Assembly (NCBI RefSeq): GCF_057098645.1 | Contig: NZ_CM169472.1 | DNA: 64,000 bases | Reading direction: 5' to 3' (one strand) | Part shown: positions 17,117 through 35,100 of the stretch, one piece after another | Layout: each line of letters begins with the position of its first letter | How positions within the stretch are numbered: the stretch's first letter is position 1 | Program-made: the position numbers and the translations under genes | Notes under the pieces: generated by a model | Databases searched by the model: none | Told to the model about the DNA's origin: nothing | The model's input: only the letters and a program-made list of their open reading frames with translations

Positions 17117-17437
17117 ATGAAAACACCCTTACCGCCCGTCTTACGCGCTGCCCTTTACCGTCGCGCTGTCGCCTGTGCCTGGCTGACCGTGTGCGAACGT
17201 CAGCACCGCTACCCGCATCTCACCCTTGAGTCACTGGAAGCGGCCATCGCCGCTGAGCTGGAAGGCTTTTATCTGCGCCAGCACGGTGAGGAAAAAGGGC
17301 GTCAGATAGCCTGTGCCCTGCTGGAAGATTTAATGGAATCCGGCCCCCTGAAGGCCGCGCCGTCGCTGTCCTTTCTCGGGCTGGTTGTGATGGATGAACT
17401 CTGTGCCCGTCACATAAAAGCGCCGGTACTGCACTGA
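17117..17437 (+). CDS. Small hypothetical protein of the P4-like element (106 aa)
   Basis: ORF between the 151-aa ORF and alpha; GGAGG RBS. Confidence 0.45.
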
Positions 17438-17451
17438 AGGAGAACAACACC

Positions 17452-19785
17452 ATGAAAATGAACGTAACCGCCACCGTCAGCCATGCGCTCGGCCACTGGC
17501 CGCGTATTCTCCCGGCGCTGGGGATTCAGGTGCTGAAAAACCGTCATCAGCCCTGTCCGGTCTGTGGCGGGAGTGACCGCTTCCGTTTTGATGACAGGGA
17601 GGGGCGCGGCACCTGGTACTGCAATCAGTGTGGTGCCGGTGACGGCCTGAAACTGGTTGAAAAGGTGTTTGGTGTCTCCCCGTCCGACGCGGCCGCAAAG
17701 GTGGCTGCCGTGACCGGCAGCCTGCCCCCGGCTGACCCGGCAGTGACGGCTGCCGCCGGTGCTGAAACAGACGCTGCCCGGAAGAACGCCGCCGCACTGG
17801 CACAAACCCTGATGGCGAAAACCCGTCCCGGAACCGGTAACGCCTACCTGACCCGCAAGGGCTTTCCCGGCCGGGAATGCCGGATGCTGACCGGCACACA
17901 CAGATCCGGTGGCGTGAGCTGGCGTGCCGGTGACCTTGTGGTGCCACTGTATGACGACAGCGGCGAACTGGTTAACCTTCAGTTAATCAGTGCTGACGGC
18001 CGTAAGCGCACCCTGAAAGGCGGACAGGTCAGGGGCACCTGTCACACCCTTGAAGGACAGAATCAGGCCGGAAAACGTCTGTGGATAGCGGAGGGATACG
18101 CGACCGCACTTACCGTACATCACCTGACCGGTGAAACGGTGATGGTGGCGCTTTCTTCCGTGAACCTCCTTTCTCTGGCCAGCCTTGCCCGGCAGAAGCA
18201 TCCGGCCTGTCAGATTGTCCTTGCCGCAGACCGTGACCTCAGCGGTGACGGCCAGAAAAAAGCCGCCGCAGCCGCAGATGCGTGTGAGGGCGTTGTTGCC
18301 CTGCCGCCGGTCTTCGGTGACTGGAATGATGCCTTCACGCAGTACGGCGGGGAGGCCACCCGTAAGGCCATTTACGATGCCATCCGGCCACCGGCTGAAA
18401 GCCCGTTCGACACCATGAGCGAAGCAGAGTTTTCCGCCATGAGTACCAGCGAAAAGGCCATGCGTATCTATGAGCATTACGGCGAGGCGCTCGCGGTTGA
18501 TGCCAACGGCCAGCTTCTGTCCCGTTATGAAAATGGTGTCTGGAAGGTGCTGCCGCCACAGGACTTTGCCCGGGATGTGGCCGGGCTGTTTCAGCGTCTG
18601 CGCGCGCCGTTCTCCTCCGGGAAGGTGGCCTCCGTGGTGGACACCCTGAAGCTGATTATTCCGCAGCAGGAAGCCCCCTCCCGCCGCCTGATTGGCTTTC
18701 GTAACGGCGTGCTCGACACGCAGAACGGCACGTTCCACCCGCACAGTCCGTCACACTGGATGCGCACCCTGTGCGATGTGGATTTCACCCCGCCGGTGGA
18801 CGGTGAAACGCTGGAGACCCACGCCCCCGCGTTCTGGCGCTGGCTTGACCGTGCCGCCGGTGGCCGTGCGGAAAAACGCGACGTGATTCTGGCCGCACTG
18901 TTTATGGTGCTGGCAAACCGCTATGACTGGCAGCTCTTTCTGGAGGTGACCGGTCCCGGCGGCAGCGGCAAAAGTATCATGGCCGAAATAGCCACCCTGC
19001 TGGCCGGTGAGGATAACGCCACGTCGGCCACTATTGAGACGCTGGAATCCCCGCGTGAACGTGCCGCGTTAACTGGCTTCTCACTGATACGCCTGCCGGA
19101 CCAGGAAAAATGGAGCGGCGACGGTGCCGGACTCAAGGCCATCACCGGCGGCGATGCGGTGTCCGTGGACCCGAAATACCGGGATGCGTACTCCACGCAT
19201 ATCCCGGCGGTGATTCTGGCCGTGAACAATAACCCGATGCGCTTCACCGACCGCAGCGGCGGCGTGTCACGCCGGCGGGTGATTATTCACTTCCCGGAAC
19301 AGATAGCCCCGCAGGAGCGCGACCCGCAACTTAAGGACAAAATCACCCGCGAGCTGGCGGTCATCGTGCGTCACCTGATGCAGAAGTTCAGCGACCCGAT
19401 GCTCGCCCGGTCACTGCTTCAGTCCCAGCAGAACTCAGACGAGGCACTGAACATCAAACGGGATGCCGACCCGACGTTTGATTTTATCGGCTATCTGGAA
19501 ACCCTGCCGCAGACCAGCGGCATGTATATGGGGAACGCCAGTATCATCCCGCGTAATTACCGTAAATACCTCTATCACGCCTATCTGGCCTACATGGAGG
19601 CAAACGGCTACCGGAATGTACTCAGTCTGAAAATGTTCGGGCTGGGGCTGCCGGTGATGCTGAAGGAATACGGGCTGAATTACGAGAAGCGCCATACCAA
19701 ACAGGGGATACAGACCAACCTGACGCTGAAAGAGGAAAGCTACGGCGACTGGCTGCCAAAATGTGACGACCCTGCAACAACCTGA
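17452..19785 (+). CDS. alpha: P4 alpha-like primase-helicase
   Basis: 777-aa ORF; N-terminal zinc-binding primase region (CPVCGGSDRFRFDD..WYCNQCG), central P-loop GPGGSGKS; same length as P4 alpha. Confidence 0.85.
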   Translation: MKMNVTATVSHALGHWPRILPALGIQVLKNRHQPCPVCGGSDRFRFDDREGRGTWYCNQCGAGDGLKLVEKVFGVSPSDAAAKVAAVTGSLPPADPAVTAAAGAETDAARKNAAALAQTLMAKTRPGTGNAYLTRKGFPGRECRMLTGTHRSGGVSWRAGDLVVPLYDDSGELVNLQLISADGRKRTLKGGQVRGTCHTLEGQNQAGKRLWIAEGYATALTVHHLTGETVMVALSSVNLLSLASLARQKHPACQIVLAADRDLSGDGQKKAAAAADACEGVVALPPVFGDWNDAFTQYGGEATRKAIYDAIRPPAESPFDTMSEAEFSAMSTSEKAMRIYEHYGEALAVDANGQLLSRYENGVWKVLPPQDFARDVAGLFQRLRAPFSSGKVASVVDTLKLIIPQQEAPSRRLIGFRNGVLDTQNGTFHPHSPSHWMRTLCDVDFTPPVDGETLETHAPAFWRWLDRAAGGRAEKRDVILAALFMVLANRYDWQLFLEVTGPGGSGKSIMAEIATLLAGEDNATSATIETLESPRERAALTGFSLIRLPDQEKWSGDGAGLKAITGGDAVSVDPKYRDAYSTHIPAVILAVNNNPMRFTDRSGGVSRRRVIIHFPEQIAPQERDPQLKDKITRELAVIVRHLMQKFSDPMLARSLLQSQQNSDEALNIKRDADPTFDFIGYLETLPQTSGMYMGNASIIPRNYRKYLYHAYLAYMEANGYRNVLSLKMFGLGLPVMLKEYGLNYEKRHTKQGIQTNLTLKEESYGDWLPKCDDPATT

Positions 19786-19792
19786 CCCACCT

Positions 19793-19817
19793 GACCGGCA
19801 TCTGCCGGTCTTTTTTT
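19793..19817 (+). terminator. Intrinsic terminator downstream of alpha
   Basis: gaccggc-atct-gccggtc hairpin followed by TTTTTTT. Confidence 0.7.
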
Positions 19818-19830
19818 ATCCCGACATCCC

Positions 19831-20125
19831 CCGAAGGTGAACAATCCACTGTTCACCCTTCACCGTATATTCACCCGTTATCACACTGAAATTAAAAGAG
19901 AAAAACGAAAGGTGAACAGTGTGAACAATCAAATCAAAAAAAACTTTTTTCTCCCTGCGTGATTTTCAGTGCAGGGGACTAATCGCCGGTATGAGTCACA
20001 CCGGCAGAATACCGGAGGTGAAGAATCGAATGTTCACCCTTCACCCATTATTCACCACCTATCATACTGAAATAAAAGGAGAAAAAAGAAAGGTGAACAG
20101 TGTGAACAGTTCTTTCGAAAAAAAA
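19831..20125. repeat. crr-like region: two direct repeats of about 110 bp, each with TGTTCACC/GGTGAACA octamers
   Basis: Near-identical units at about 19831-19945 and 20015-20125 (..ggtgaa..aatgttcacccttcacc..tcatactgaaataaaaggagaaaaa..aaaggtgaacagtgtgaaca..). Confidence 0.6.
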
Positions 20126-20321
20126 TTTTTTATGTGGATAAAAGATGCACTGGTTTGGATCCGAGCTACGGATCCAAACTTACTGATTAAAAATGATTTA
20201 ACTTTCCGATTTATTGATGGGCTGAAAATAGATTGGTCAGAAAAACAGTGGGGGCACAAAAGGGGGCATATTTCATTGTTGTGTTTTATTATTTGTTTTT
20301 TATCATTAACTTATTTTGATG

Positions 20322-20343
20322 TTTGAGTCCGGCCTTCGCACCA
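20322..20343 (+). repeat. attR: partial duplicate of the leuX 3' end
   Basis: tttgagtccggccttcgcacca versus leuX ttcgagtccggccttcggcacca. Confidence 0.7.
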
Positions 20344-21020
20344 CACCGTATGCAAATCGAGTCGCTCAAGGGCGGCTTTTTTTGTGTCTGAAATCACCCA
20401 TATCCGTGCAGTATATAGGCCTGCCAGAAAAGCAGTTCAGTATTCTTCATTTTGTAGTCGATGGTCCCAAGTTTGCTCTGGCTGGAAGCTGCATCGTCCA
20501 CATTACGTGGGCAGGGTGGTTTCGCTATGCTACTTGAACGTTTTGACCATGTGGCTCAGGTAGCTAATATCAAAAGACGTCATTTTGTCTCCACGCCCAC
20601 CTTGGTGAACATTCAATAAATAGTTTCGGTCGAGAGCAGTTATGTAGGGCTAGCAGACGAGATGCGCAGACATCTTGTTGAAGACAATTATACTGACCAC
20701 CTGAGAACGCTATTCTACCGAATAATATTTATTATCTTGGCGAATAATGATGATTACCTGTGTAACTATGGTTTTATGCTGATGGGACCGGCAGTACAAT
20801 TTCTGTAGTGTACTCGCAATTTCAGATCTCTGGCGTTTATTCTGGTGCAAAGGAGGTATGTGATGAAAACTTTGCTACCATGCCATTAAATGCGACCAAT
20901 ATCGGATTATCCATCAGTTGCTTGTCGTAGATTTCATTGGTTATAAAAATGCAAGGTGTAAAAGATGAAATTTATAATTATTAGTTAAGTGGCTAGTTTT
21001 ATAGTAATTTAGACAATAGG

Positions 21021-23069
21021 ATGTATGGAAAAATGGAAAAAGTTTATGATACCACTAGAATTAGTAATCTTGCTAACGACCCGAAACAGTTTTGTTCTTT
21101 TTTTTGTGAGTACATAAAAAGAGATGATATTAGTATAGATATCGCCTTGGATGTGCTGAGAATATCTTCCATCTATTATAATAGATTTTCAGTTCAGACT
21201 GAAGTTGAGTATAACAATACATTCAAAAAATGTATTAATGAGCTAGTAAACTCATTTCCTGATAACATTGAACTAATTTCTGAGTTCGAGAGTCAATGTA
21301 AAATTATGCATGATATAAATAATTCTTTCTTTGCGGCTACAAAATGTGCTGGTATTTGGCGTGAAAATACAAAAAAATCACATGCATTAATACTTAATCT
21401 CATCATGTTTTGTGAGATGTTTTTATCATCATTATCATCCTTGGTTGTGGTCAATGATCCTAAAAAAATGAAGAGGATTTTTCCATTATTTATCGTTTCT
21501 GAAAATATTAATATTCATGCTGAACCTGATATCGAATATTTTCGAGTTATCGATAGGGCATTTGATGAGGTAGCCAATTACACCGGAAGAATATTTTCTT
21601 ATTTACGGACTCATGAGCCATTGAAACTAACTTCTTGTGTGAATAAACAAACCTTGCTTTCAATGGGAGGGTACCTTAATGAGTGGAATGTTTTTGACTC
21701 ATTAAGCAGAGTAAGAGACTTTTTCAGACTAAGTAGTGCAGTATTTACAAAATTGGATAATAACATTTACTCTCTTGAGGTTGATAGTTTTTGTTTATAC
21801 CGAGATTATGAGATTGCAAGAAATAGACTAATGATGAGAGCGTCACATCTATATAGCGAAGTTCATGAATTTAGTAACAAACATTTTCATCTAAATAGTT
21901 GGGTAAAGGATCATATGCCATCTTACTTAAATTCTGATGGCGTTTTTAGCTCATTTCATCTAAGCGAGTTGGAAAATATGTCTCCTGATGACCTTCATGA
22001 AGAATATGGGAATATATCATTATTTAATTGGGTGCACGCTTATCAATGTTTAGTCGAGTTATCTAAAGAAGAAATGAGCAAAAGATTTTCATCGACAAAA
22101 CCTATACCCCTACAGTTGGATCGCTGGCTGATCATAAAAAGCCGTGAGAGTTGGTTATCATTCTTTCAACGTAAGGGGATTGCAGCAGATGCAGCAAAAA
22201 AACTGATAGATTATTTTACCTTCAATTCAAAATCACATGATCTTAATGATTGCCCATTTATTCCCTGTATGGACGGTTTATGCTTAATGCCTGCATTCAT
22301 AGCAAATAGCTCAGTGACTCGCTCTCTAATGTCATTATTTGGTTCCAAAAAAATTTCTCAAGCAAGTAAAGGGCGATTTCATGAGCAACAATTTATAAAA
22401 CAAGTTCGTGATGCGGGGATTAAAGCTTCTCCAATTGATGCTCATGCTAATTATCAGTGCGATTGCGTGATTCTCCTGGATGATTGTTTGATTTTTACAG
22501 AACTAAAATCAAATGGTCAACCAATATATTATGGTAAGTACTATCAGCAAGTGTGTAACATCGTTGGAGATAGCTCATTAATACATGATCATAATAATAA
22601 ATTTATGCGTTCTTATTTTCAACAAATAAATCGAACTTCTGAACATTATCTTAATCATCTTGATGTGATCATTAAAGAATTCGAACTACCATCAACATGG
22701 CAACCCAAAGGTGTGTATAAGCTTATTGTTACTACAACTATGCTCGGTGGGAAATATCATGTGGATGATACATATGTAGCGGACAAATATGCATTATCTA
22801 GTTTTTTTCAACGAATACCTGGAGTGATATATCAAACAAATGAAAATGGAGAAATGGCGAAAAATATCATTGATGGGTTTGAGTGTTGCGAAGGGGAAAT
22901 CACTATCGATAAGTTTATAGATTATCTTTCCTCTTTGCCCGGTATTAATGCTGTACGTAAAAATATACAAAAATTAACTTATAGTGTTCGATTTAATGAA
23001 AAACTAGTCCATCACCCTTATTATGATTCTTGGGCTTTTGGCCCATATATTCGTAAGGGAAATGATTAG
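21021..23069 (+). CDS. Hypothetical 682-aa protein with a possible PD-(D/E)xK nuclease-like motif; orphan accessory gene
   Basis: Long AT-rich ORF; no housekeeping similarity recognised; QCDCVILLDDCLIFTELK segment resembles a PD-(D/E)xK core; strong terminator immediately downstream. Confidence 0.5.
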   Translation: MYGKMEKVYDTTRISNLANDPKQFCSFFCEYIKRDDISIDIALDVLRISSIYYNRFSVQTEVEYNNTFKKCINELVNSFPDNIELISEFESQCKIMHDINNSFFAATKCAGIWRENTKKSHALILNLIMFCEMFLSSLSSLVVVNDPKKMKRIFPLFIVSENINIHAEPDIEYFRVIDRAFDEVANYTGRIFSYLRTHEPLKLTSCVNKQTLLSMGGYLNEWNVFDSLSRVRDFFRLSSAVFTKLDNNIYSLEVDSFCLYRDYEIARNRLMMRASHLYSEVHEFSNKHFHLNSWVKDHMPSYLNSDGVFSSFHLSELENMSPDDLHEEYGNISLFNWVHAYQCLVELSKEEMSKRFSSTKPIPLQLDRWLIIKSRESWLSFFQRKGIAADAAKKLIDYFTFNSKSHDLNDCPFIPCMDGLCLMPAFIANSSVTRSLMSLFGSKKISQASKGRFHEQQFIKQVRDAGIKASPIDAHANYQCDCVILLDDCLIFTELKSNGQPIYYGKYYQQVCNIVGDSSLIHDHNNKFMRSYFQQINRTSEHYLNHLDVIIKEFELPSTWQPKGVYKLIVTTTMLGGKYHVDDTYVADKYALSSFFQRIPGVIYQTNENGEMAKNIIDGFECCEGEITIDKFIDYLSSLPGINAVRKNIQKLTYSVRFNEKLVHHPYYDSWAFGPYIRKGND

Positions 23070-23092
23070 AGCAATTTATTATATAGTCCATG

Positions 23093-23134
23093 TTATTCAC
23101 TGATTATATTATTGATAATATAATCAGTGAATAA
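23093..23134. terminator. Long perfect hairpin between the 682-aa gene and downstream minus-strand ORFs
   Basis: ttattcactgattatatta-ttga-taatataatcagtgaataa followed by a T7 run. Confidence 0.65.
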
Positions 23135-23691
23135 CTCTAATTTTTTTAATGTTGGGGGGTAGCCTGAAATTGAAATTGGTACTACGGAACGGTATGATCA
23201 TATCGCATCAAAATATCAAGGTAGTGATGATTTTCTACGCAACGATCCAGAAACGTGGATTTTATCATCACCATAAGCAATGGCAGCGACAACACCATCA
23301 ATTTCTATATCAAAGGTGGTGAAATGAATTAGAAAATTGTTTATTTAATCCATTAGCGATAAGTTTTATTGTTATTTAGCCGAGATATATTCCATTGAAA
23401 AAAGTAAATTGGCACTGATATTATATCAAATGGGAATAATCCTTTTGTAAATAAGCTGAGGAATGTGTTAATTCACATCCAGCGCCTTATAAACCGCATC
23501 AACCGGTTCTGAGTAAAAACTTACCTGAAACTTGGTAAACAACTCTGCCGGAACTGTTGGAATATCCATAGCCGAGGATATCGGCAACAGAACACGTTTT
23601 GCGCCGCTATCGAAGGCGAGTTGTAAACTAGCGGCAAGATCCTGCACTGATTATGTCAGCAATATTGAACATACTGCGATAGTTATCAACC

Positions 23692-24564
23692 TCACCCCCT
23701 AAAAACCTCTTTCCGATGCCACTCTACAAACACCTCATAAGGGTAATTTTTACGCACCTGCGGCAACGTAATAGTTTTCCCGTCAAAATCCCAGAATAAT
23801 CTCTCAACGATCCCTCCGCCGTTTACCGCATCTGATACCAGTACCCGCATATTTTCGTCCAGGCCAATCGATCCTTTATCAAAGGCTTTATGGTGAATTG
23901 CGCAAAGCGCCAGGCCATTAGGAATTTCACAAGGACCGCCGTGCTGTTTCCATTTTATATGCGCCGCTTCCAGCGCGACGGTGGTGTCGTCGTGGCGCAT
24001 ATTAAAGCCACATATCGCGCACTGGTAGTTATAAGCGCGTAATACATTTTTGCGAAATAACGGGTCGCGCTGTTTACGGATTTGCTGGAGATCAAAACCC
24101 AGCTCGTCAGCGATTTCTTCCTGAATACTCTCGGTGAAGTGCGCTTCGAGTATCTGTTGCGCCAGAGTATTGATGAGTTTTTTATTGCCGATTACCAGGG
24201 CGTAGTGCTGTTCATCGAAACCGCCTGCAACGTGGTATTCGTTCAGTTCCTTCACTGGCGGTTGTCGGCTGCTCCCTGCTGTTGAGCAACGCTCGGCATT
24301 GTGTAATTGCCAGAATCCGTCGCCTTGTAATCGCCAGAACGGCATATCAGGTCGGTACTGTGAACGCTGTGGCCCAAAACGTTCCAGTAAACTGTGCAGA
24401 GGTTCGTAGATTTCCGATCCATAATCGAAAAGGCGCGGATGTCCATTCAGGTATCCCGCTAATACGTATAGCAGTAACAATGGTTTATGCGGCGCGCGCT
24501 GTTCACCCTTGTGCCAAATTTTTATGTTGGCAATTGCCTGCTGTAGCGATTTACTGGAAGCCAT
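23692..24564 (-). CDS. HNH endonuclease-domain protein with an N-terminal domain of unknown function
   Basis: C-terminal HNH motif YNYQCAICGF...ALEAAHIKWKQHGGPCEIPNGLALCAIHHKAFD; start chosen at MASSKSLQQ (ATG 24562-24564). The ORF track allows an N-terminal extension to 24720 that overlaps the nanM-derived fragment. Confidence 0.7.
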   Translation of the reverse strand: MASSKSLQQAIANIKIWHKGEQRAPHKPLLLLYVLAGYLNGHPRLFDYGSEIYEPLHSLLERFGPQRSQYRPDMPFWRLQGDGFWQLHNAERCSTAGSSRQPPVKELNEYHVAGGFDEQHYALVIGNKKLINTLAQQILEAHFTESIQEEIADELGFDLQQIRKQRDPLFRKNVLRAYNYQCAICGFNMRHDDTTVALEAAHIKWKQHGGPCEIPNGLALCAIHHKAFDKGSIGLDENMRVLVSDAVNGGGIVERLFWDFDGKTITLPQVRKNYPYEVFVEWHRKEVFRG

Positions 24565-24641
24565 TGATATCCCAGGCAGTGAAATAATTGCAATCATGCT
24601 CGCAAATTTTCTGCTGTTCAAGCCTGCAAGTGAAGATCCAT

Positions 24642-24914
24642 TGCTGTGTTGAGGGATCAAAAGACAACAAAAACTTATTGAAGAAATAATCTTCTGCTTT
24701 TTTGTCGAAATAATAGGCATTGATCTTGTCTATAGCTGCTAAATATTCTCCAGCCTCGTTGAGATCTTCAAAATAGCCATTGAAGATGTTCTGGTTAACA
24801 CCGCCAGTAACATAAGCCTTGCCGCTGTGTACAAAAGTCACATTACCCGCCATGCCCATCGGCGCGTGCGACATCAATTTATTGTTTTATTCATTGTGAC
24901 TGTCTCCTGTCTAC
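24642..24914 (-). pseudogene. Rearranged nanM fragment (internal codons fused to the nanM 5' leader)
   Basis: About 240 bp nearly identical to nanM 57959-58200 (MSHAPMGMAG..FDPSTQQW) joined directly to about 30 bp matching the nanM RBS/leader region 58541-58573; lacks the first about 148 codons and the 3' part. Confidence 0.7.
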
Positions 24915-25103
24915 AAAGCTTTAACCTTCACCCGTATGAGGGAAGTTTTAAGTATGAGGCGAACCATAGCATATGCCTTTATACCTATTACACCATAAAG
25001 ATAGACAAGTTATGCCATAAACTACTTTTGTAATTTGAGTCACAAATCAGGGAAGTTTTATTTATCTTCCGTGAAAGTCTTAACTTTCACGGAGTGTTAG
25101 AAT

Positions 25104-26207
25104 TTACAAAGTTGCTGGCGTAAAGGCTCCGGTTTGTATTTCTTTAACCAGCTCACCCACGGTATATATTCTCCATCCTTCGACTTCGGCGGGAGTAAGG
25201 TTAACTGCAATTTTAAGGCCTGGCCATGCAGCTTCTACGGTTGCAATAATTTCATGTTCTGAGTTTTGAAGATCTAACCCAGGAACAGGAGGTTGAAAGC
25301 CTTTATGTTGCATCATATTAATATCACCATGCACTGATGGATCAGTCAGGTCATATATTTCATTCCAGGATTCTGCTTTTAATAACCCTTGTTGGGAACG
25401 TAAACGTTGAATGATAGCCATCTCAGCTTGGGTAACGAATATACCTTCGTGGAGGGGCTGTTTTCGATGGCAATCCTTGCACAGAACAAGAAGGTTTTCA
25501 TGGTGATTATCATATTTGATGCCATTTTTATGATGGACATGGCACAAGTTTTTGGCGGTTGATAAATTCACGCCACAATCATTACAAACATAATTGGCCT
25601 TTTCTCGTATTTCTTTAGATATTTCCTTCCAGTTTTCAACATACCCACTATTTGTTTTGTCATAGATACCCTTAGGCATATGACGAAAACAGGTACTATA
25701 ATCTGAAAAAAACTCATTTAATGAGAATGATTTAAAAATCTCTCTTTTTCGTTGTTTATCAATACTTCCTTTATAATTAAGTCGTTCGAGGCAATTCATA
25801 CATACCCGTAAATCAACATCCTGGCTCCGACCTGAACCATCATCAATTTCGAATAAACCATCTATGCGGTTAGTTGCATGATACCTTTCAAATCGATTTT
25901 TATGGCGCATTTCATCAAGAGTTCTGCACCAGGCAATATGAAAACGTTTTCCTTTTTCGCCATCTACGATAGCCGCATCATAACGCCCTGAATGGTCCCG
26001 AATATATAAAAGAACCTGGCGGCCATGATAAGAGATAAGCCCGCTACCAGGGTCAAGATCTTCGATACTAACTTCTTTACCCGTGGATAACTCAATATCT
26101 ATAGGATCAAAGTCAATAGGGGATTCATCCAGAAAAAAATCGACTCCTTCTGGTAACATTTTCTTCCCTAATTGAATAAGTTCTGAAAGGTCGATAGATA
26201 ATTTCAT
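25104..26207 (-). CDS. zorE: ZorE-like HNH endonuclease (Zorya type II)
   Basis: 367-aa ORF with HNH motif CNDCGVNLSTAKNLCHVHHKNG..NLLVLCKDCH; third gene of a MotA-like/MotB-like/HNH operon. Confidence 0.65.
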   Translation of the reverse strand: MKLSIDLSELIQLGKKMLPEGVDFFLDESPIDFDPIDIELSTGKEVSIEDLDPGSGLISYHGRQVLLYIRDHSGRYDAAIVDGEKGKRFHIAWCRTLDEMRHKNRFERYHATNRIDGLFEIDDGSGRSQDVDLRVCMNCLERLNYKGSIDKQRKREIFKSFSLNEFFSDYSTCFRHMPKGIYDKTNSGYVENWKEISKEIREKANYVCNDCGVNLSTAKNLCHVHHKNGIKYDNHHENLLVLCKDCHRKQPLHEGIFVTQAEMAIIQRLRSQQGLLKAESWNEIYDLTDPSVHGDINMMQHKGFQPPVPGLDLQNSEHEIIATVEAAWPGLKIAVNLTPAEVEGWRIYTVGELVKEIQTGAFTPATL

Positions 26208-26210
26208 CTC

Positions 26211-26918
26211 TTACTCCTGAATAATCTTTCTAATCTGCAACTCGGCATTTGTTACAACTTTGAAGGTGACACGACGAGAGCGATTAGGATCCTCCTTGCC
26301 GGTTTTATCAAGAATGGGATGTGCAGATGAATAACCTACTGCGGCAAATTTACTTTTAACCCATTGTTGGTGTGTCGCGATATTTTTTATGTCATAAACG
26401 TATTGTAATACTGCACGTGTACGACCTTGCGATAGTGCCATATTATTAAAATAAGCAATATCAGGATTCGTTGTTCCTGTCCAGTCAGTACTTGTGTGAC
26501 CTTCAATGCGGACTTCAGTAATATGTTCCTGATAATTATCTAGAACTTTTAGGTAGCGAGGAAAGAAATCGTCAAGAATGAGTTTAAACTTTGGTTTTAG
26601 CTCTGTGCTTCCTAAGCCAAATAAAACATCCGGTGATTTAAATCGAACCTCCAGAGTCTGTTTATCGATCTCTGCATCCCAGTCTTGTAAATCCTTTGCA
26701 AACTCAATATCCAGAGCATTATAAAGCTGTAACTGAGCATTCTCGTAGGCTACGGCAACTTCTTTAATTTTTTCTTTTTCAATACGTACGTAGTGCATAT
26801 AAGCAATAGATATGAACATAAAAACCATCATCAGCCCTGCCATTAGGTCTGACATGGATACCCAATGTTCATTATCTTGATCTTTTTTAGGTAATTGTTT
26901 CCCTATAATCTTATCCAT
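26211..26918 (-). CDS. zorB: ZorB-like MotB/OmpA-family protein (Zorya)
   Basis: 235 aa; N-terminal single TM helix with a preceding Asp (SMSDLMAGLMMVFMFISIAY); C-terminal OmpA-like peptidoglycan-binding region. Confidence 0.7.
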   Translation of the reverse strand: MDKIIGKQLPKKDQDNEHWVSMSDLMAGLMMVFMFISIAYMHYVRIEKEKIKEVAVAYENAQLQLYNALDIEFAKDLQDWDAEIDKQTLEVRFKSPDVLFGLGSTELKPKFKLILDDFFPRYLKVLDNYQEHITEVRIEGHTSTDWTGTTNPDIAYFNNMALSQGRTRAVLQYVYDIKNIATHQQWVKSKFAAVGYSSAHPILDKTGKEDPNRSRRVTFKVVTNAELQIRKIIQE

Positions 26919-26924
26919 GATCGA

Positions 26925-28577
26925 TTACCCGCGATGTTTATTAGCAGAAATTAATGCTTGTAACTGCCCCATAACTATTTGGTAATCTTTAATAAGTTTT
27001 TCATAGTTACCGACAAAACCTTTGCTGATTGAAAGCAGAGCATTACCTAATGATTGCATTTCACGGTTCATTTCACGTTCAGTTGCTTGCTCAAAAGCAT
27101 GTAACTGCTCGTTGATGGATAGAGCAAATTTTTCAATTGATTCTCTGACTTGAGAAGTCAGCCCTGCACTTGCCTTATCAAATGATGTCTGGATTGAATC
27201 AAACATATTATCGGCATTACTGGATAGTTGATGGTTAATCTTTTCACCAGTCTTACTGAACATATCAATCACATTCGTCGTATTTTGTTCCATATTTCTA
27301 TGCAATTCTTTCGAGTGCGACTCTAGTGATTTCAGGAATTCTTCACCACTTTGTTTCATTTCAGTAATTGTTTCACCTAACGTGCTGGTTAGGGTTTCGG
27401 AGGAATTGCTGACATCATGTGCCATCGAGGCAAATGCTTGTTGTGTTTGGGTAACCGATTGTCTGAATCCTTCGGTACCTTCATCCAGGGCAACGCGCAT
27501 TGAATCTGCATTAAGAAGTATTTGCTGGCTGGTTTGCTCAAGAGATGCACTAACATTTGCAGCTCCGGATTTCAGCAGTTCACCCACTTCAGCCATTTTG
27601 TTCTGTATTTCAGGTAATACGGTTGTAGCTTTATCGCGGATGGCGACAAAGGTTTCTAAATGGCGGGAGAGTTCGCTGATTTGATGTTGGTTCACCTGAA
27701 GCACTTCACGCAGTTCAGACATAGCCAGAGGAATTTCTTTACATTCTTCCCAAATCCCTGCAACCGCAGTTTTTGTTTCAACCAGGGACTCGACACTTTG
27801 TTGATATTGTTCTGACATCTGCTCAATTTGCGTTTTATAATTTCCCTGCCACTCAACAAGTTTTTTTACAGAGGCATCAAGAGCTTTAAAGTTTTCACCA
27901 AACTGTTCAGTTAAATTTTGATTAAAATCAATAATGACTTGTCGCAAAGCATCAATAATTTGTTCTGTAGCACCTTTTGCCATTAGATCTGCAAATTGTT
28001 CAAGTTGTTCCCAAAGCTTATTACTGAAATGAGTGTGATTAGCTAATTGTGCCTGCGAGGAATCGCTAATATCAGTACGTAGTAATTTTATTTGAGCAAT
28101 AAGAGAACCTTCACTATCACCGTTAATACCCGAGACTAATTTAGTCAGAGTCTGGTTCTGCTCTTTTAATTCATGATAGATATGTTCAGGTGTAACAGAT
28201 TCAGGGTTATTTTCTGCTAACGCACTTCGTTTATTGGCAAAAAAGAAAGCATCCATTCCATTAAATAAAATGGCAAAAAACATACCTACAATGCTTGTAA
28301 TGAATGCTGTTTTTAGGCCACCTAATAATACGGGGATGCTGGTATCAATACTTTCGGTATTAAAATTGAGTAAACCAATAATAATACCAATGAAAGTACC
28401 CAGAATACCTAATGCCCCCATTAAGGTTGGAGCATATTCTCTAAACTTACTATGTATATTTTTTTTGTCACACCACCACGCTGATAAAAATACGAATATA
28501 ACAGCCCAGATGAAAATATTGGTGATCAGTGTAGAGTCTATCGATTGAAACAACTGCTCAAAAAGCTGCGCTAACAT
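26925..28577 (-). CDS. zorA: ZorA-like MotA/ExbB-family membrane protein with long coiled-coil tail (Zorya)
   Basis: N-terminal TM helices (..LMGALGILGTFIGIIIGL.., ..LKTAFITSIVGMFFAILF..) followed by about 400 aa of Q/E-rich predicted coiled coil. Start chosen at MLAQLFEQ (ATG 28575-28577); the ORF track allows 28634. Confidence 0.7.
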   Translation of the reverse strand: MLAQLFEQLFQSIDSTLITNIFIWAVIFVFLSAWWCDKKNIHSKFREYAPTLMGALGILGTFIGIIIGLLNFNTESIDTSIPVLLGGLKTAFITSIVGMFFAILFNGMDAFFFANKRSALAENNPESVTPEHIYHELKEQNQTLTKLVSGINGDSEGSLIAQIKLLRTDISDSSQAQLANHTHFSNKLWEQLEQFADLMAKGATEQIIDALRQVIIDFNQNLTEQFGENFKALDASVKKLVEWQGNYKTQIEQMSEQYQQSVESLVETKTAVAGIWEECKEIPLAMSELREVLQVNQHQISELSRHLETFVAIRDKATTVLPEIQNKMAEVGELLKSGAANVSASLEQTSQQILLNADSMRVALDEGTEGFRQSVTQTQQAFASMAHDVSNSSETLTSTLGETITEMKQSGEEFLKSLESHSKELHRNMEQNTTNVIDMFSKTGEKINHQLSSNADNMFDSIQTSFDKASAGLTSQVRESIEKFALSINEQLHAFEQATEREMNREMQSLGNALLSISKGFVGNYEKLIKDYQIVMGQLQALISANKHRG

Positions 28578-28788
28578 TTTGATACCTGTGTAAATAATGG
28601 ATAGTTGTAATCGTTTAAAAAATAAACAAAACACACATAATTTATATGGTTAAGTTCGGTGTAGCGCTCATGATTGTAACAAGTTTTTTCGAGATATAAA
28701 TGATTTGTCTCATTTTTAGCGAGTTCATCGGGTTGAGCTTTTTTATGATGATAGTAACCTGTTACGAATTGTATCAAAGGAAGGCAGG

Positions 28789-31700
28789 TTGCTTGTGAAA
28801 ACTCCAGTTAACCCACTTTTGCAATGGCTTAATATGTTTTTTAGTCGCCGTTCATTATCCGGAGCTGATGGACGGGCGTTATATGCTTACCGTTGTACTG
28901 ATACAGAGTACGAAAGTTTGGCAGAACTACTGCGTACATATGCCCCCCGTAGTTATCCAAGAACGATATTCATTTCCTATAGCGATGTTCTATTTAGCAT
29001 ATATGCCGCAGAGTTTATCCGCCGGACTCATACGGTCGGACACCCTAAATGGGACACAATTTTAGATTCTATTAACTGGAAAGTTCCGTATGTTCATCGA
29101 CAGAAGCTGGTTAATGATGGCATTCGCTACTGGAAAAGAAAGATAAGAAACCTGGGACAAGCTTCGGGTTATCTGCATACACTGGCTTGTGAAGGTGGTT
29201 TGCCTATCCGCATGATTGAAAATGAGAGCGGTTATTTGATTACCTATTTCAGAAGGATATATCAGGCGCTTCGTGGGCAATCATCTCAATATCCTGCCGC
29301 TAAAATTGCACAAGAATTAGGCGATACGATTCCTGTCACAATGCAAAACGAACTGGTCTATGAAATAGCCGGTGAATTCTGCGAGACTCTCTGCCGATTA
29401 CTTAGTGAGCATCCTCCTCATAGCAGTGATCCCGTTTCTGCATTACGTAAGCTCTCTCCAGACTGGCATCTTCAACTTCCACTCGTTCTCCCCGAAGCGA
29501 ATGCTGCAGAGATTGTAAGGCGATTACTTTCTCAATCTTCTGAAATACGCAGTGCAAGTAGTCTTCAGGTTGAAAGAATCTGGGTCGATGTTGATGACAG
29601 TTGGTATTGCGATGCCCGGTTCCGATTCCCGGCCACAATGCGTACAGAACAGTTAACCTCTTTGTTTGAATGCCATATTCAGCCGGAGCAGACCCGACTC
29701 ATCATTTCAGGAAAATGGAAAAATGGCGGGGCAAGGTTGGCAATGCTAAGCCGTTATGAGCAGCAAGATTGGCGGGTCGAGTTATTACCTATTGCGATGC
29801 AAAAACTCTCTGGTGCAGATGCAATGGCCGAAATCTCATTGTCGCTTCATGAAGGTCCAATTCTGTTAGGTCACACAATTCCAAAAGGCGGTTATGAACT
29901 TACTGAAGAACTTCCCTGGGTTTTTGAAGCGATGAATGAGAGTGAATCGCAGCTAAAACTTGTTGGTATGGGGTCTGTGAGTTCCAGGCTAAATGCTCTG
30001 TTTATTTCGCTACCGAAAAATAGCCATTTAGATATTAGTGGAGAAGGTGAGTTTGATATCCCAAGGTTGCTGAAAAACAGTGAACGCAGCTTAACTAAAA
30101 TAAGTGGAGTATTTAGCGTTGTTTTACATGATGGTGCTGTTTGTACAATTCGCACCCAGCAACTTTATGATTCTGCGATTGAATATTATATTAAATCGAC
30201 AGAAGTTGAACTGGTTAAATCGGATTATCCTGTCCATCGAGCCTGGCCGAAGATCGGTTGGAAAAAGGATCTGCAATATGGCATTGTACCGGAGAAAGAA
30301 CTTTTTTGGCGTTCCATTCGTTCAGGTAATAATGCCTGGTATTCTGTCGCATCAGAAATGCCAAAAGGACAGATAGAAGTCCGGCGAATAGTTAATGATG
30401 AGGTTTTATTTAGCGGTAAAGTTGTAGTTTTACCAGCAGACTTCGATATTAATATTATACCTGAGAGTGCTCAGCAAGGCATTATTATGCTTTCTGGTAT
30501 AACGGATACTAGAATTGATAAATATTCAAACAATGAAAAAGTAACACTTAAGTCCGATTATTCACAAAACGAGTGTGCTATTTATTATAATTCATCGCTG
30601 ATGCTGGAAAATACCGTTGATTTACGGGTCTCCTGGAAAGATGGTTCTAATCTTAAACTATTATTACCTAAGCCGGTTAGCGGTGGCCGATTTGTAACTA
30701 ATGATGGTTCTGTTCATTTTGATGGTGTGGCATCTATAGCACATTTGCATGGAATAGATGCTGAGTTATTAACCATATCATGTGCTGGAAGAGGATATCT
30801 TAATATCGAGTTATTGGATGAAAATCCAGTAGCTGAAAAATTCCGCTATTTACATGCCGACCTTCCTCTTTTATCAGGACGCAATGACAAATTACAACAA
30901 ATTTCACTTTATGAGAACTATAATTTGCTAAATGCTATGCTGGCATGTGCATGGAACAGCAATAGTACATTATGTGTTGATTTTTACTCTGACAGATTTG
31001 GAAAGGATAAAGCAACACTCAATATTAAACGCTACGATGGTAGTTTTATTGAACACGATCAAGGGTTACTGGTTGATATAAAAAATTCTGTTGTTTTTCC
31101 TGCAAATAGAATAGACGAACTGGTTGTTGATGCTATTTCTCTTAAGAATCCTGGCTTACACATATCATTGTTAAAAAAAGATGAGTTTGCTTATGATCTT
31201 TCAGCTCTGAATGTTCAGGATAGTCCATGGTTAATTGTGGGAAAACTTGATGGTACAGCTCGCATTGCACCAGTAATTAAATGGATGCTACCTGTATTGC
31301 AGACAAATGATTTATTACTAAATGCTCTATGCGAAGCAGACCCAGAACAGCGCAAAAAAAATTTTAATGAGCTAATTTTTGAAATAGATAACAACCCATT
31401 GCAAAATTATTGCTGTTTATTAACAGAGTATATTAAGAAATACAAAATGAATAATGGCTTATCCTTGCTGGATCTGGACTTGTTCAGAGGTATTTCGAGT
31501 AATTACCGCGTGGTTGTTCAATTGTTAATATCATCATGTCTTTCTGGTGATAGCGATACGATTTATGATATACAGGAAGAATTACCCTTTTCATGGGGAT
31601 GGATTCCCGTTTCAATCTGGAAAGATGTTTTCCAAAAATGTTGGACTTATCTGGAGAAACAGATTAACGATAAAACATTAGCATTACATATATTGCAACC

Positions 31701-32148
31701 CTTTATTGCTTTTATGAACCATCGTGCACATATCGATCGTCGGCTGGCTCCGATTGCGAATATGTTACTTACATATAGTGAGAGCCTACCAACCGGTTGT
31801 GATGTATTGCCAACTGTTAGTCGTGAGCAGTTTAATGAAGCTAAACAGATGCTATTAAGGAACCCCGACAGCTTTGGGCGTATCAGTATCTTCCCTAAAG
31901 AACTTTGGTCTAGTGCTATTACTCCAGAGTTAAAATCTGTTTTTAATAAGCTTTGGATTGAAGATAAATATCACTCACGGCTTGAAAAACGTTTTAATTT
32001 GATGTTAGTCGCAGCGCTGTTAACCCAAAAAGATAATAACCTGATACATCAACTGTCTGCGCTTTTTGAATTTCACTATCAGCAAGCCCCACAGCAATTA
32101 GGGGTAATCTATCAATATTATTTTGAACAAGCAGGAGTATGTCATTGA
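28789..32148 (+). CDS. Large hypothetical protein (1119 aa), DruH-like by size and position; first gene of a two-gene operon with a giant helicase
   Basis: TTG start with AGGAAGG RBS; no P-loop or other motif recognised; stop overlaps the start of the downstream helicase gene. Confidence 0.5.
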   Translation: MLVKTPVNPLLQWLNMFFSRRSLSGADGRALYAYRCTDTEYESLAELLRTYAPRSYPRTIFISYSDVLFSIYAAEFIRRTHTVGHPKWDTILDSINWKVPYVHRQKLVNDGIRYWKRKIRNLGQASGYLHTLACEGGLPIRMIENESGYLITYFRRIYQALRGQSSQYPAAKIAQELGDTIPVTMQNELVYEIAGEFCETLCRLLSEHPPHSSDPVSALRKLSPDWHLQLPLVLPEANAAEIVRRLLSQSSEIRSASSLQVERIWVDVDDSWYCDARFRFPATMRTEQLTSLFECHIQPEQTRLIISGKWKNGGARLAMLSRYEQQDWRVELLPIAMQKLSGADAMAEISLSLHEGPILLGHTIPKGGYELTEELPWVFEAMNESESQLKLVGMGSVSSRLNALFISLPKNSHLDISGEGEFDIPRLLKNSERSLTKISGVFSVVLHDGAVCTIRTQQLYDSAIEYYIKSTEVELVKSDYPVHRAWPKIGWKKDLQYGIVPEKELFWRSIRSGNNAWYSVASEMPKGQIEVRRIVNDEVLFSGKVVVLPADFDINIIPESAQQGIIMLSGITDTRIDKYSNNEKVTLKSDYSQNECAIYYNSSLMLENTVDLRVSWKDGSNLKLLLPKPVSGGRFVTNDGSVHFDGVASIAHLHGIDAELLTISCAGRGYLNIELLDENPVAEKFRYLHADLPLLSGRNDKLQQISLYENYNLLNAMLACAWNSNSTLCVDFYSDRFGKDKATLNIKRYDGSFIEHDQGLLVDIKNSVVFPANRIDELVVDAISLKNPGLHISLLKKDEFAYDLSALNVQDSPWLIVGKLDGTARIAPVIKWMLPVLQTNDLLLNALCEADPEQRKKNFNELIFEIDNNPLQNYCCLLTEYIKKYKMNNGLSLLDLDLFRGISSNYRVVVQLLISSCLSGDSDTIYDIQEELPFSWGWIPVSIWKDVFQKCWTYLEKQINDKTLALHILQPFIAFMNHRAHIDRRLAPIANMLLTYSESLPTGCDVLPTVSREQFNEAKQMLLRNPDSFGRISIFPKELWSSAITPELKSVFNKLWIEDKYHSRLEKRFNLMLVAALLTQKDNNLIHQLSALFEFHYQQAPQQLGVIYQYYFEQAGVCH

Positions 32149-35100
32149 TGGACGTTCAGCAACTGCATTATGCGCCACTTCTAAATCAGCTTCATCAGCG
32201 TGCGGTGAGGTCGGTGGTAAGTCAGTTGGCATTGCGGAGCAAGTCGTTGACTCATTATCTGGAATCACAATATTTTCAGCCTCCCGGTCAGGAGGGGTCA
32301 CTGCTTGCAGACCCGGTATTCGAAAGTACATTCGGCTGGATGCCTGCGGATGAAACAATGGAGGATTTGCGGGACAAGCTGATCTCCAGCCCGCTGGTTG
32401 ATGCATTGAGCAAAGCGCCAGTGCCATTTCGTCATCAACTTACTGCGTGGCGAACGATTCTGGAAGACAAAAAATCCTTGTTAGTGAGCAGCGGTACGGG
32501 ATCCGGGAAAACAGAATGCTTTATGGTACCGGTTCTGGAAGATCTTATTCGTCAGCAAAAATCGACCCGCCAGTCACTAACAGGGACACAAGCTATTTTC
32601 TTGTATCCGTTAAATGCATTAATTAACAGCCAACAGGAGCGGCTTCGCGAATGGACGCGCGGATTTAAGGGGAAAATACGCTTCGCGCTATATAATGGCG
32701 AAACCCGGCATACCAAATACGAAATTCAGGAAGATCAGTTGAAAGTACCTGAACAAGCTTTGAGTCGGGAAGCCATTTATGAAGCACCACCTTCCATCAT
32801 GGTGACGAATACCACCATGCTGGAATATATGCTGATTCGTCGTAAAGATGCCCCAATCATCGAAAAGTCTCAGGGGATGTTAAAGTATATCGTCCTGGAT
32901 GAAGCCCATAGTTATATTGGTTCTCAGGCTGCTGAGTTAGCGCTGCTTTTACGTCGTGTTATGCAGGCTTTCAATGTTGGACCCGGCACAGATAAACCTG
33001 TGCAGATTATCGCGACCTCTGCCACTATTGGTGAAGACTCTCCTGAAGGTAATAAGGAGCTTGCTAAATTTGTCGCTGATCTCGCGGGCGTTACAGAACG
33101 TGATGTCAAAGTGGTTCGCGGTTATCGACAAATACCGCGGGTATCGGAGTCGCTGATTCGTCATGAATACCCCACATCTTTAACTTCTCTTAAATCCCTG
33201 AGCCCTCAGGATCTTTACCAACAGCTTTGTCATTACCGTGTGGCCCAGCAATTGCGTCAGGCGTTAACTCATCCCGGACGGCAGGCAGTACGTTTGAGTG
33301 AGTTGCTCAATGTTGCCAGAAGAACCTGGCCAGATATTAATCACCGTGAGCTACTGCAACTCCTCGATCTAATGGCAAGATCGCGAGAAGGTGAACTGGC
33401 TTTTACGCCATTACGTATGCATGGGTTTATCAGAACACTGGCGGGTCTATGGGCATGTTCAAACAAACAATGCTCACATAAAGCACATGAATTAAATCAG
33501 AGTGACTGGCCATTTGGTCAGGTATGGTTTGAGCAGCGCCAATATTGTGACTGTGGAGCGCCGGTATTTGAAGTTTTACGTTGCTCCGGGTGTGGTTCAG
33601 CTTATTTGTCTGCCAAAGAGGAGATGCGCGGTGATGGAACGAACTGGTTGGTAGCGCAACCAGCCGCTGCCGAAGTGGATGAGTTTGCTCTTGATGTAGA
33701 TGTTTATTCTGAAGATGAAGACAACGACGAATTAGACAATAACTCTCAATTTGATCGTCTGATTGCGAGCGATGGTGAAAAATATATCATTTCACTGGAA
33801 GAAACGACGGCGGGGAAAATTGATAGTGAAGCGCAAAAGCACTATGAAATAAACCTGTTAAGACCGGAATCTCGAGGTGAGGGACGCAATAACTCCTTTG
33901 CTTGTGTTTGCTGTGGTGACACTCAACGGAAAAATAATCCTTTATTCCGTCCGCTTCGGCTCGGCGCGCCCTTTTTTTTAAATGAAATTATTCCTACTCT
34001 GCTGGAGTTTTCTCCATTACCGCAAACAAGAGAAGAGCAGTTAGGACCGTTTAATGGTCGACGCTTGCTCACCTTTACGGATTCGCGTCAGGGTACCGCT
34101 CGCATTTCAGCCCGCTTACAGCAGGATGCCGATAAAGCGACGTTGCGAGCTCTTTGTTACCAGGAACTGGCAAATATTACAGAGCCTTCAGCAAAACTCA
34201 GCCCGGCACACTGTGCACTGTTAGAGAAAGTTATTAGCCAGTTTTCTGTCCTCCCTTTAAAAAATTCCATCGACGCGCTGAAAAAAGCGATGGCTGCGAA
34301 TGAGGAGCTTAGCCCGACGGACATTCAGGCACTTAAAATTATTGAGCCGATGGTGAGTTCCTTAAGCACGGAGCATGCTGAAGCGATGCAAATACTTCAG
34401 GCTAACTCTGGCAATCAGCAGAAGAAAACCATGTCATGGCAAACGCTGTCTGAACAGCTGGTTGGCAGTGTGGACCTTGCCGATAGAATGAGAGGCAGTT
34501 TTAAAGAATTGTCTGGGCTTGATCTTACTAAACAACAGTTTGCAGATTTTTGTTTATACAGCGAGTTTGGTCGCCGCCCTAAAAATGCCTGGACCCTCGA
34601 AAGTCTGGGTCTGGTAGCCATTCACTATCCATTCATTGATAAAGTTACAACCTGCCCGCAGGACTGGAAGACATTATTACCCGATCCCGATAAGCAATTA
34701 GCGGAATGGCGTAATTTATTGAAGATTACTCTTGATTTCTTTATCCGTGAAAACAGTGCCGTTTTTTACGAAAACGAGCAATACCCTCGCTGGATGGGGG
34801 CACGTTTCCCGGTAAAAATGCTCCAGGGGCCAGATAAAAAAAACAAAGGGCAGAAACGTGATCAACTTTGGCCACAAATACGCGATCGCCATTATAACCG
34901 GGTCATTAAGCTATTAATCGCAGTCTTTCCGGCAATACAACCTGAGCAGGCTCACTGGAAATCGTTAGTTAACCACTTAATGATTGAGGTCTGGGATGCA
35001 ATTCGACCCTGCTTACGTCAGTTTGAGTCGGGTTATCAGCTGGATATTAAACAACAAGCTGAATTTTACAGTCCAAAGCAAGTGTGGCGTTGCCCCTATA

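Follow-up and report, generated by a model that had tools for sequence, protein, structure and literature searches.

The question raised by this locus is whether three tightly packed genes on the minus strand of the window, the 64,000-nucleotide stretch of DNA analysed here, encode a type II Zorya anti-phage system or a set of flagellar or Tol/Exb relatives lying beside a nuclease gene. The first of these answers had been proposed in a sequence-only reading. The features under study are as follows.

26925-28577, minus strand: zorA2, encoding a 550-aa MotA/ExbB-type inner-membrane channel subunit (PADLOC ZorA2, E = 6.9e-303, residues 1-550 aligned to 1-545 of 545)
26211-26918, minus strand: zorB2, encoding a MotB-like protein of 235 aa with an ATG start (PADLOC ZorB2, E = 2.2e-104)
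25104-26207, minus strand: zorE, encoding a soluble effector of 367 aa with an ATG start (PADLOC ZorE2, E = 6.6e-177, residues 1-363 aligned to 1-372 of 375)

The ORF list placed these as three co-oriented frames separated by 6 nt between zorA and zorB (26919-26924) and by 3 nt between zorB and zorE (26208-26210), exactly the coordinates and gaps that had been claimed. The zorA start was taken as the ATG at 28577, which gives 550 aa and is also the RefSeq zorA2 start, from which the NCBIfam ZorA2 model aligns over 1-550 of 550; the longest reading frame extends to a GTG at 28634. The PADLOC profiles matched all three proteins at full length, and each protein passed its NCBIfam equivalog cut-off, with 1140.5 bits against 700 for ZorA2 (NF041792), 443.8 against 400 for ZorB2 (NF041787) and 696.1 against 600 for ZorE (NF041791). 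These matches bear out the proposed zorA-zorB-zorE order of type II, and E-values down to 1e-303 exclude a chance match. The cassette is of type II, being without the zorC and zorD of type I or the zorF and zorG of type III; among the listed matches of the flanking proteins there was none to ZorC, ZorF or ZorG, and the sole match to ZorD was weak, low-ranked and located in ArmA.

Chromosomes of E. coli O145:H28 contain the operon DNA with 100% identity, and its genes bear the RefSeq names zorA2, zorB2 and zorE there; among 5426 complete E. coli genomes the locus was found in 593. Judged from sequence, the identification as zorA-zorB-zorE is right, already known and ordinary, the exact locus being named in RefSeq, and the result at this level is a full-length set of ZorA2, ZorB2 and ZorE whose identity to experimentally tested copies is 99% or more, with all residues known as essential present in the three proteins. 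Very probably the three genes form a type II Zorya system that is intact and directed against phages. The practical value of the identification is annotation; the genetics and biochemistry of type II Zorya of E. coli were reported in 2025-2026 and the structure of type II ZorAB has been solved, so that nothing is new in this respect.

The opposite view, that the genes are flagellar stator (MotAB) or Tol/Exb-type paralogues with an unrelated adjoining nuclease gene and no role in defence, draws on the membership of ZorA and ZorB in the MotA/ExbB and MotB/OmpA superfamilies of Pfam and on weak matches to MotB, MotS and MotD. However, these matches remained far below the NCBIfam cut-offs (MotS 39.7 bits versus 264, MotB 36.4 versus 300, MotD 27.2 versus 283) where the Zorya equivalogs pass theirs, and the flagellar MotB/MotS/MotD models together with T6SS/OmpA models gave 24-43 bits against cut-offs of 140-520. 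The 5:2 motors MotAB and ExbBD/TolQR do share with Zorya the superfamily of the channel and of the OmpA-like anchor, including a conserved TM Asp, but they are without a long cytoplasmic tail or a nuclease partner, and stators are blocked by a plug where Zorya has a ZorA collar. A tail of ~440 aa, as found on ZorA, is foreign to stators. Furthermore, genes of defence systems and mobile elements flank the operon on a tRNA-Leu island, no partner of the flagellar, Tol or Ton kind lies nearby, and near-identical operons are proven anti-phage systems. The flagellar or Tol/Exb reading, named beforehand as the outcome that would refute Zorya, was rejected on the NCBIfam cut-offs and the genomic context, and we give it practically no weight against type II Zorya.

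ZorA had been described as a MotA/ExbB-like membrane domain followed by a coiled-coil tail of roughly 400 aa. The membrane domain is present, with hydrophobic segments marking a TM region at ~aa 12-114 and Pfam MotA_ExbB matching aa 51-110 at 28.4 bits (cut-off 22.9). The claimed length of the tail also held, the cytoplasmic alpha-helical portion covering ~435-445 aa (residues ~106/116-550), with four prolines and a composition rich in E, S, L, Q and A. As to its coiled-coil nature, the amphipathic periodicity (3.5-3.67 residues) was modest and only weakly significant, the observed value being reached by 3-6% of shuffles, and Pfam returned weak, sub-threshold matches to helical apolipoprotein families. 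The tail would be a coiled coil mainly by analogy with homologous structures, and its bundling is likewise known from homologues.

In ZorB, one N-terminal TM helix (aa ~20-44) carries Asp24, which lies in 'WVSMSDLMAGLMMVF' and aligns to D21 of Sulfuricurvum kujiense ZorB II (8VVI_A, E = 1.5e-52), so that the conserved ion-coupling TM aspartate expected of a ZorB is in place. The C-terminal peptidoglycan-binding domain was recognised by Pfam OmpA over aa 99-213 at 34.7 bits (cut-off 27.2) and, with the ZorB2 equivalog passed, the assignment of a MotB-like anchor with an OmpA domain was upheld.

In ZorE, an HNH nuclease lies between an N-terminal domain and a C-terminal extension, and no TM segment was found. 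The nuclease core was read from the translation.

25434-25595, minus strand: ZorE HNH (beta-beta-alpha-Me) core, aa 205-258

This core, which was also matched by a PADLOC homing-endonuclease profile, contains C208-x2-C211, H225-H226, N234/N238, C243-x2-C246-H247 and H253. Generic Pfam HNH models remained below cut-off on ZorE (HNH_3 14.2 bits), a threshold that homologues do reach, and it was the CxxC...HH...N...CxxCH motif at residues 208-253 together with the equivalog score that established the third gene as an HNH nuclease. Every residue whose importance was established by mutagenesis (Wu et al. 2026) is kept here, with H90, E99, Y109, Y189, H226, K231, N234, H235, N238, L239, H247 and H253 present.

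The Zorya II of E. coli ATCC 8739, studied by Mariano et al. 2025 (PMC11890865), has the same genes, protein lengths (550, 235 and 367 aa) and spacing of 6 nt and 3 nt as the operon described here, with identities of 547/550 for ZorA, 234/235 for ZorB and 365/367 for ZorE. Six substitutions separate the two: D169E, Q220E and S470G in ZorA, L65I in ZorB, and L7I and T366K in ZorE. ATCC 8739 also shares the divergent DruH-DruE and ARMADA II neighbours, plus a nanM fragment after zorE, but its insertion site is tRNA-Phe and not the tRNA-Leu(CAA) used here; its leuX locus was examined and holds no Zorya. In E. coli O157:H7 EDL933, O-island 172 carries zorABE (z5894-z5896) with druHE and armABCD in the gene order found here, likewise at tRNA-Leu, between ahr and nanM/fim. 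Identity to the O157:H7 proteins was 549/550 for ZorA and 364/367 for ZorE, and we infer that ZorB is identical to that of O157:H7/EDL933, because a single RefSeq protein accession is shared by the 100%-matching O145 record, O157:H7 and EDL933.

More distant comparisons concern the motor. In the S. kujiense ZorA5B2 complex, the type II 5:2 structure solved by cryo-EM (PDB 8VVI), ZorA is homologous over the TM core and the proximal part of the tail (aa 42-382, E = 4e-38) and the homology of ZorB covers nearly all of the protein; the sequences are distant, and S. kujiense ZorA has 378 aa against 550 aa here, which leaves the tail described here ~170 aa longer. A 5:2 motor in which ZorB binds peptidoglycan and ZorA has a long tail is also formed by the type I Zorya of E. 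coli (ZorABCD, PDB 8QYD; PMC11946911). Its ZorA is larger, at 729 aa, and resembles the one described here only weakly, within the TM core (E about 1e-4 to 1e-5); where type II has the HNH nickase ZorE, type I uses ZorC and ZorD as effectors (a DNA-binding protein and an Mrr-like nuclease/helicase).

The operon lies in its usual defence island at tRNA-Leu(CAA), beside Druantia III and ARMADA II, and the surrounding features are listed below.

25068-25093, minus strand: hairpin with an 11-bp stem, starting 11 nt past the zorE stop codon
28578-28788, no strand assigned: AT-rich, divergent zorA2/druH intergenic region of 211 bp, presumed site of both promoters
28789-38462, plus strand: Druantia type III, with druH at 28789-32148 and druE at 32148-38462 (PADLOC DruH3 and DruE3, E = 0, full-length)
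38686-54909, plus strand: ARMADA type II, with armA at 38686-41544, armB at 41547-46457, armC at 46457-52798 and armD at 52795-54909

The divergence of the zor genes from druHE is also stated in the literature for EDL933, and Druantia III is a reported functional partner (synergy) of Zorya II. ARMADA was assigned from PADLOC matches of the DrmD-like, type IIG/DrmMI-like, DruE-like and GajB-like kinds, and its gene order is that of EDL933 z5899-z5902; O145 genomes that are identical in other respects have armB annotated as a pseudogene. A phosphorothioated-DNA-binding endonuclease is a further neighbour. Between tRNA-Leu and the defence array the window carries a P4-like satellite with an IS21-family insertion, where EDL933 has a different integrase-bearing element. 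The ORF at 15255-16253, which drew a PADLOC 'DrmD' match, was rejected as a defence gene, since it encodes the IstB-like ATPase belonging to an IS21-family element. A 682-aa orphan protein of the window had no match in PADLOC, Pfam, NCBIfam, PHROGs or PDB, and at the corresponding spot O157 has integrase and transposase remnants.

Sigma-70-like matches were seen on the minus strand at 28777-28748 (10/12) and 28700-28673 (9/12). The promoter/terminator scan of 24700-29000 gave 12 sites where 14.5 were expected from shuffles, and with no excess over the shuffles the promoter position is not fixed. The hairpin downstream of zorE folds at -16 kcal/mol (z = -4.6), and 0/200 shuffles fold as well; it has no U-tract and was not called by the terminator scan because the T-run is missing. 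It is possibly a transcript-end or stabilising structure.

Such a setting allows the operon to be a Zorya II by descent that is silent or non-functional in the source strain, where it would be decaying as the passenger of an island that is immobilised. The decay products of the island (a transposase with a frameshift, the nanM fragment and, in related strains, remnants of an integrase), the annotated armB pseudogene and a promoter scan with no sites above shuffle level would all fit a passenger of this kind. Against this, the three ORFs are full-length relative to the equivalog models, they differ from functional copies by merely 1-3 mostly conservative substitutions, none of them at a tested residue, and the native chromosomal locus of EDL933 is active against T7, protecting against Autographiviridae. 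We therefore regard a silent passenger as quite improbable and an intact system as the preferred reading. In ATCC 8739, the deletion of any single Zorya II component led to loss of protection against T7, and the constructs D24N, ZorA delta106-550 and ZorB delta45-235 were tested by T7 efficiency of plating (PMC11890865). Phage resistance here would require all three genes, as was shown for the ATCC 8739 and EDL933 copies, whose identity to this operon is 99% or more.

The literature on near-identical or homologous copies suggests how such an intact system would work. Five ZorA and two ZorB subunits would assemble into an inner-membrane, ion-driven, MotAB-like 5:2 motor, in which Asp24 of the ZorB TM helix would carry the ion flux, the periplasmic OmpA-like domain of ZorB would bind peptidoglycan and the five ZorA C-termini would be bundled into a long cytoplasmic tail. 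Perturbation of the envelope or peptidoglycan at phage genome injection may then cause ZorB to engage peptidoglycan and the channel to open, upon which ZorA would rotate around ZorB and a signal would pass down the tail. Both the trigger (peptidoglycan damage or displacement) and the tail rotation are models, the proton-driven motor with tail signalling being derived from type I (PMC11946911). The tail would recruit and concentrate ZorE at the phage entry site; ZorE is a Mg/Mn-dependent nickase that is recruited by ZorAB upon infection. Its HNH domain may nick DNA there, in supercoiled or partly single-stranded substrates of phage and to some extent of host DNA, and this nicking would block mainly T7-like podoviruses. 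Druantia III, next to the operon, might in addition make use of ZorE independently of ZorAB, with ZorE working on DNA intermediates common to both systems.

Authors disagree on whether this defence is direct or costly to the infected cell. If ZorE mainly damaged the host chromosome, the outcome would be a population-level, abortive-like defence and not the local destruction of incoming phage DNA, and Mariano et al. reported host chromosomal single-strand breaks, cell elongation and lower fitness of infected Zorya II cells in an E. coli B background. In vitro, however, host DNA proved less susceptible than phage DNA; a direct action without abortive infection is reported for type I Zorya (PMC11946911); and when Zorya II is combined with Druantia III, the outcome is reported to move toward survival of infected cells. 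Damage mainly to the host is thus the less likely course, though with an appreciable chance, and local action on phage DNA is preferred; whether the outcome is direct or abortive-like may depend on strain and phage.

The last domain of ZorE offers a possible link to another system of the island.

25167-25373, minus strand: ZorE C-terminal extension (core aa 279-347), modelled with a Vsr-like PD-(D/E)xK fold

This extension, left without an assignment in the publications consulted and reported to be enriched in 'Druantia-associated' ZorE, shares homology with the very C-terminus of the ArmC helicase, the ARMADA II helicase-nuclease encoded 26 kb from zorE in the same island; ArmC has the Vsr-like domain as its last domain, and DruE of Druantia is without it. 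Pfam searches of both C-terminal domains, and PDB sequence searches with ZorE and with the ArmC C-terminus, gave no matches, and a homologue search with the ZorE domain returned only nine short fragments, uninformative on its distribution. The extension models as a restriction-endonuclease-like alpha/beta core of the Vsr type, probably without the canonical catalytic strand. In the alignment, the 'ELAWPxxK' motif retains E325 and K332 as consensus residues, not invariant in every sequence, and the strand that follows ('IAVNLT' in ZorE) has no conserved acidic residue, which is consistent with an inactivated domain. That the domain common to ZorE and ArmC is a module plugging ZorE into neighbouring helicase systems is a doubtful proposal, to which we assign a low probability; such a link might run via recognition of the same DNA intermediates or via direct pairing with ArmC. 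If true, the 'Druantia-associated' enrichment of the extension would reflect co-inheritance and cooperation with ARMADA II, and a synergy dependent on this domain would be predicted between Zorya II and ARMADA II. The fold assignment and the ArmC homology, which bear on cross-talk between the systems of the island, are the sole small and possibly useful addition made here.

The ORF listing covering 20000-34000 bore out the arrangement proposed by the sequence-only reading, namely three minus-strand genes set 3 to 6 nt apart at 25104-28577, the spacing within zorA-zorB-zorE being 6 nt and then 3 nt:

26925-28577, minus strand: zorA (zorA2), 550 aa, ATG at 28577; the mechanical ORF runs to a GTG at 28634
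26211-26918, minus strand: zorB (zorB2), 235 aa
25104-26207, minus strand: zorE, 367 aa

The Zorya region has a G+C content of ~37-40%, compared with ~52-60% in the flanking core genome, and the low-GC block begins near 20000. A strong hairpin (25068-25093, minus strand; 11-bp stem, -16 kcal/mol, z = -4.6) begins 11 nt past the zorE stop; since no U-tract follows it, it is no canonical intrinsic terminator.

All three products were matched over their full length by the PADLOC type II profiles (ZorA2 6.9e-303, ZorB2 2.2e-104, ZorE2 6.6e-177) and passed the NCBIfam equivalog cut-offs (ZorA2, 1140.5 bits vs 700; ZorB2, 443.8 bits vs 400; ZorE, 696.1 bits vs 600), confirming the type II gene arrangement that had been put forward. 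The descriptions of the first gene as MotA/ExbB-like and of the second as MotB-like with an OmpA domain were likewise upheld, with Pfam MotA_ExbB on ZorA residues 51-110 and OmpA on ZorB residues 99-213 both exceeding their gathering scores. An assignment to flagellar or Tol/Exb paralogues was rejected, as the NCBIfam MotB, MotS and MotD models reached 27-40 bits vs cut-offs of 259-300, and no flagellar, Tol or Ton genes were found among the neighbours of zorABE. This profile check thus failed to refute Zorya, and both the earlier observation and the reading put on it hold. The system is a known one: RefSeq names it, and copies at least 99% identical have been characterised by experiment.

Many E. 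coli O145:H28 chromosomes match window positions 25000-28800 at 100% identity, and in them RefSeq places zorA2, zorB2 and zorE at exactly the same boundaries, and the locus is present in 593 of 5426 complete E. coli genomes. The ATCC 8739 system, the one used for type II Zorya mutagenesis and biochemistry (Mariano et al. 2025, PMC11890865), encodes proteins identical to those of the window at 547/550 (ZorA), 234/235 (ZorB) and 365/367 (ZorE) residues; its placement at leuX was ruled out, the copy being found at tRNA-Phe. For O157:H7 the corresponding values are 549/550 for ZorA and 364/367 for ZorE. The likeness of ZorB was taken from accessions, the 100%-matching O145 record sharing its ZorB RefSeq protein accession with O157:H7 strain BB24-1, and EDL933 carries the same three Zorya protein accessions as BB24-1.

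The conserved aspartate sought in the ZorB transmembrane helix is present, Asp24 lying within 'WVSMSDLMAGLMMVF' and aligning to Asp21 of the Sulfuricurvum kujiense type II ZorB (PDB 8VVI, E = 1.5e-52). The NCBIfam equivalog model for ZorB2, 210 positions long, starts at ZorB residue 26 and so excludes the ion-coupling Asp24 (ZorB aa 1-25 = 26844-26918); a shorter start seems to underlie the model. ZorA residues 42-382 align to 8VVI ZorA (E = 4e-38). The window ZorA is ~170 aa longer, and its tail thus exceeds that of the solved homologue. The tail has four prolines in 435 aa, and its 3.5-3.67-residue periodicity was matched by 3-6% of shuffles; as this test was weakly significant, the putative coiled coil rests on homologous structures. 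That the third gene encodes an HNH nuclease was borne out by the ZorE signature (C208xxC211 ... H225-H226 ... N238 ... C243xxC246-H247 ... H253), with the generic Pfam HNH models staying under their cut-offs. ZorE also keeps all of the residues mutated by Wu et al. (H90, E99, Y109, Y189, H226, K231, N234, H235, N238, L239, H247 and H253).

In the literature on near-identical or homologous systems, ZorAB of types I and II assemble into MotAB-like complexes at a 5:2 ratio, in which a dimer of ZorB domains binds peptidoglycan and the ZorA tails form a bundle. In ATCC 8739, efficiency of plating on T7 was measured for the constructs D24N, ZorA delta106-550 and ZorB delta45-235, and loss of any single component abolishes T7 protection. 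In EDL933, T7 resistance depends on zorA, zorB and zorE of the chromosomal locus, whose protection is mainly against Autographiviridae. The ZorE protein, a monomeric nickase dependent on Mg/Mn, prefers supercoiled DNA and shifts to the membrane fraction with ZorAB upon infection; it can also function without ZorAB, downstream of Druantia III, on shared DNA intermediates. In the proposed model, phage-induced perturbation of the envelope would allow ZorB to grip peptidoglycan and the channel to open, rotation of ZorA would pass a signal down the tail, and ZorE would gather at the site of entry and become active there. It is disputed whether Zorya II clears the phage directly or in part damages its own cell.

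The window repeats the published tRNA-Leu island architecture, which is shared by O157:H7 NCTC 12900 and EDL933 O-island 172 and likewise reported for O145:H28. First in order come tRNA-Leu(CAA) and a P4-like satellite prophage:

5923-6007: tRNA-Leu(CAA)
5923-20338: P4-like satellite, ~14.3 kb, integrated in tRNA-Leu(CAA)
6160-7446: integrase
7912-10021: type II restriction enzyme and cytosine methyltransferase
10338-19785: psu, ogr-delta and primase-helicase genes

An 18-nt direct repeat, whose copies at 5984-6001 and 20321-20338 differ by one mismatch, flanks the satellite; maximum coverage of the satellite in one place among the complete E. coli genomes in the collection was 78%. The ~3 kb left without coverage by O157:H7 copies of the element appears to be an IS21-family insertion (13835-16253; IstA-like transposase 13835-15481, IstB/DnaC-like ATPase 15255-16253). 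The PADLOC call of this ATPase as 'DrmD' was a false lead, the gene belonging to the insertion. Beyond the satellite the order is the first three features below, Zorya II, divergent Druantia III (druH, druE), ARMADA II (armABCD), a decayed transposase and nanM/nanC/fim, and the array with Zorya II is immobilised.

21021-23069, plus strand: 682-aa orphan protein, ~32% G+C, lying after the tRNA-Leu repeat and before the defence genes
23692-24564, minus strand: restriction endonuclease that binds phosphorothioated DNA, with sulfur-binding and HNH domains (NF045808, 437.7 bits)
24632-24880: 249-bp nanM fragment adjoining zorE; full nanM at ~57446-58552
41547-46457: armB, ARMADA II methyltransferase, an intact 1636-aa ORF

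The orphan protein had zero matches in PADLOC, Pfam, NCBIfam, PHROGs and PDB sequences; it contains 'DCVILLDDCLIFTELK', which resembles a PD-(D/E)xK motif and makes it a candidate uncharacterised defence nuclease. The endonuclease gene lies a short way downstream of zorE, its mechanical ORF (to 24720) being longer than the RefSeq start. Since the same nanM fragment follows zorE at the unrelated tRNA-Phe site of ATCC 8739, it travels with the Zorya-Druantia-ARMADA array, and is possibly a scar of earlier residence beside nanM. In O145 strain RM9872, otherwise ~100% identical, the annotation gives armB as a pseudogene split by a frameshift, with the matching stretch 2 bases shorter; either the gene is truly inactivated in those strains or the assembly is in error.

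The PADLOC ZorE2 profile also matched the final ~75 residues of ArmC, encoded in the same island (E = 5.8e-9), and blastp aligned ZorE 279-347 (25167-25373, minus strand) with ArmC 2022-2095 (52520-52741, plus strand) at 35% identity (E = 5e-7), with no comparable ZorE match in DruE. This shared domain is a minor refinement that leaves the verdict unaffected. In the available part of Wu et al. the extension is called nuclease-like but unassigned, and enriched in Druantia-associated ZorE; the available part of the YprA preprint states that type II ArmC often terminates in an inactivated Vsr domain, and the link between the two is absent from these parts of both sources. The ZorE extension is modelled as a Vsr-like PD-(D/E)xK fold. 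The strand normally bearing the catalytic acidic residues is unconserved, so the extension may lack activity. When 1.84 billion representative proteins were searched index-free with the C-terminal 107 aa of ZorE, 114 relatives were returned, most of which, judged by match length and position, look like long-form ZorE proteins or their fragments. One relative (P0104), 546 aa long and containing a DUF1998/MZB domain, carries the same domain as the ZorE extension at its C-terminus.
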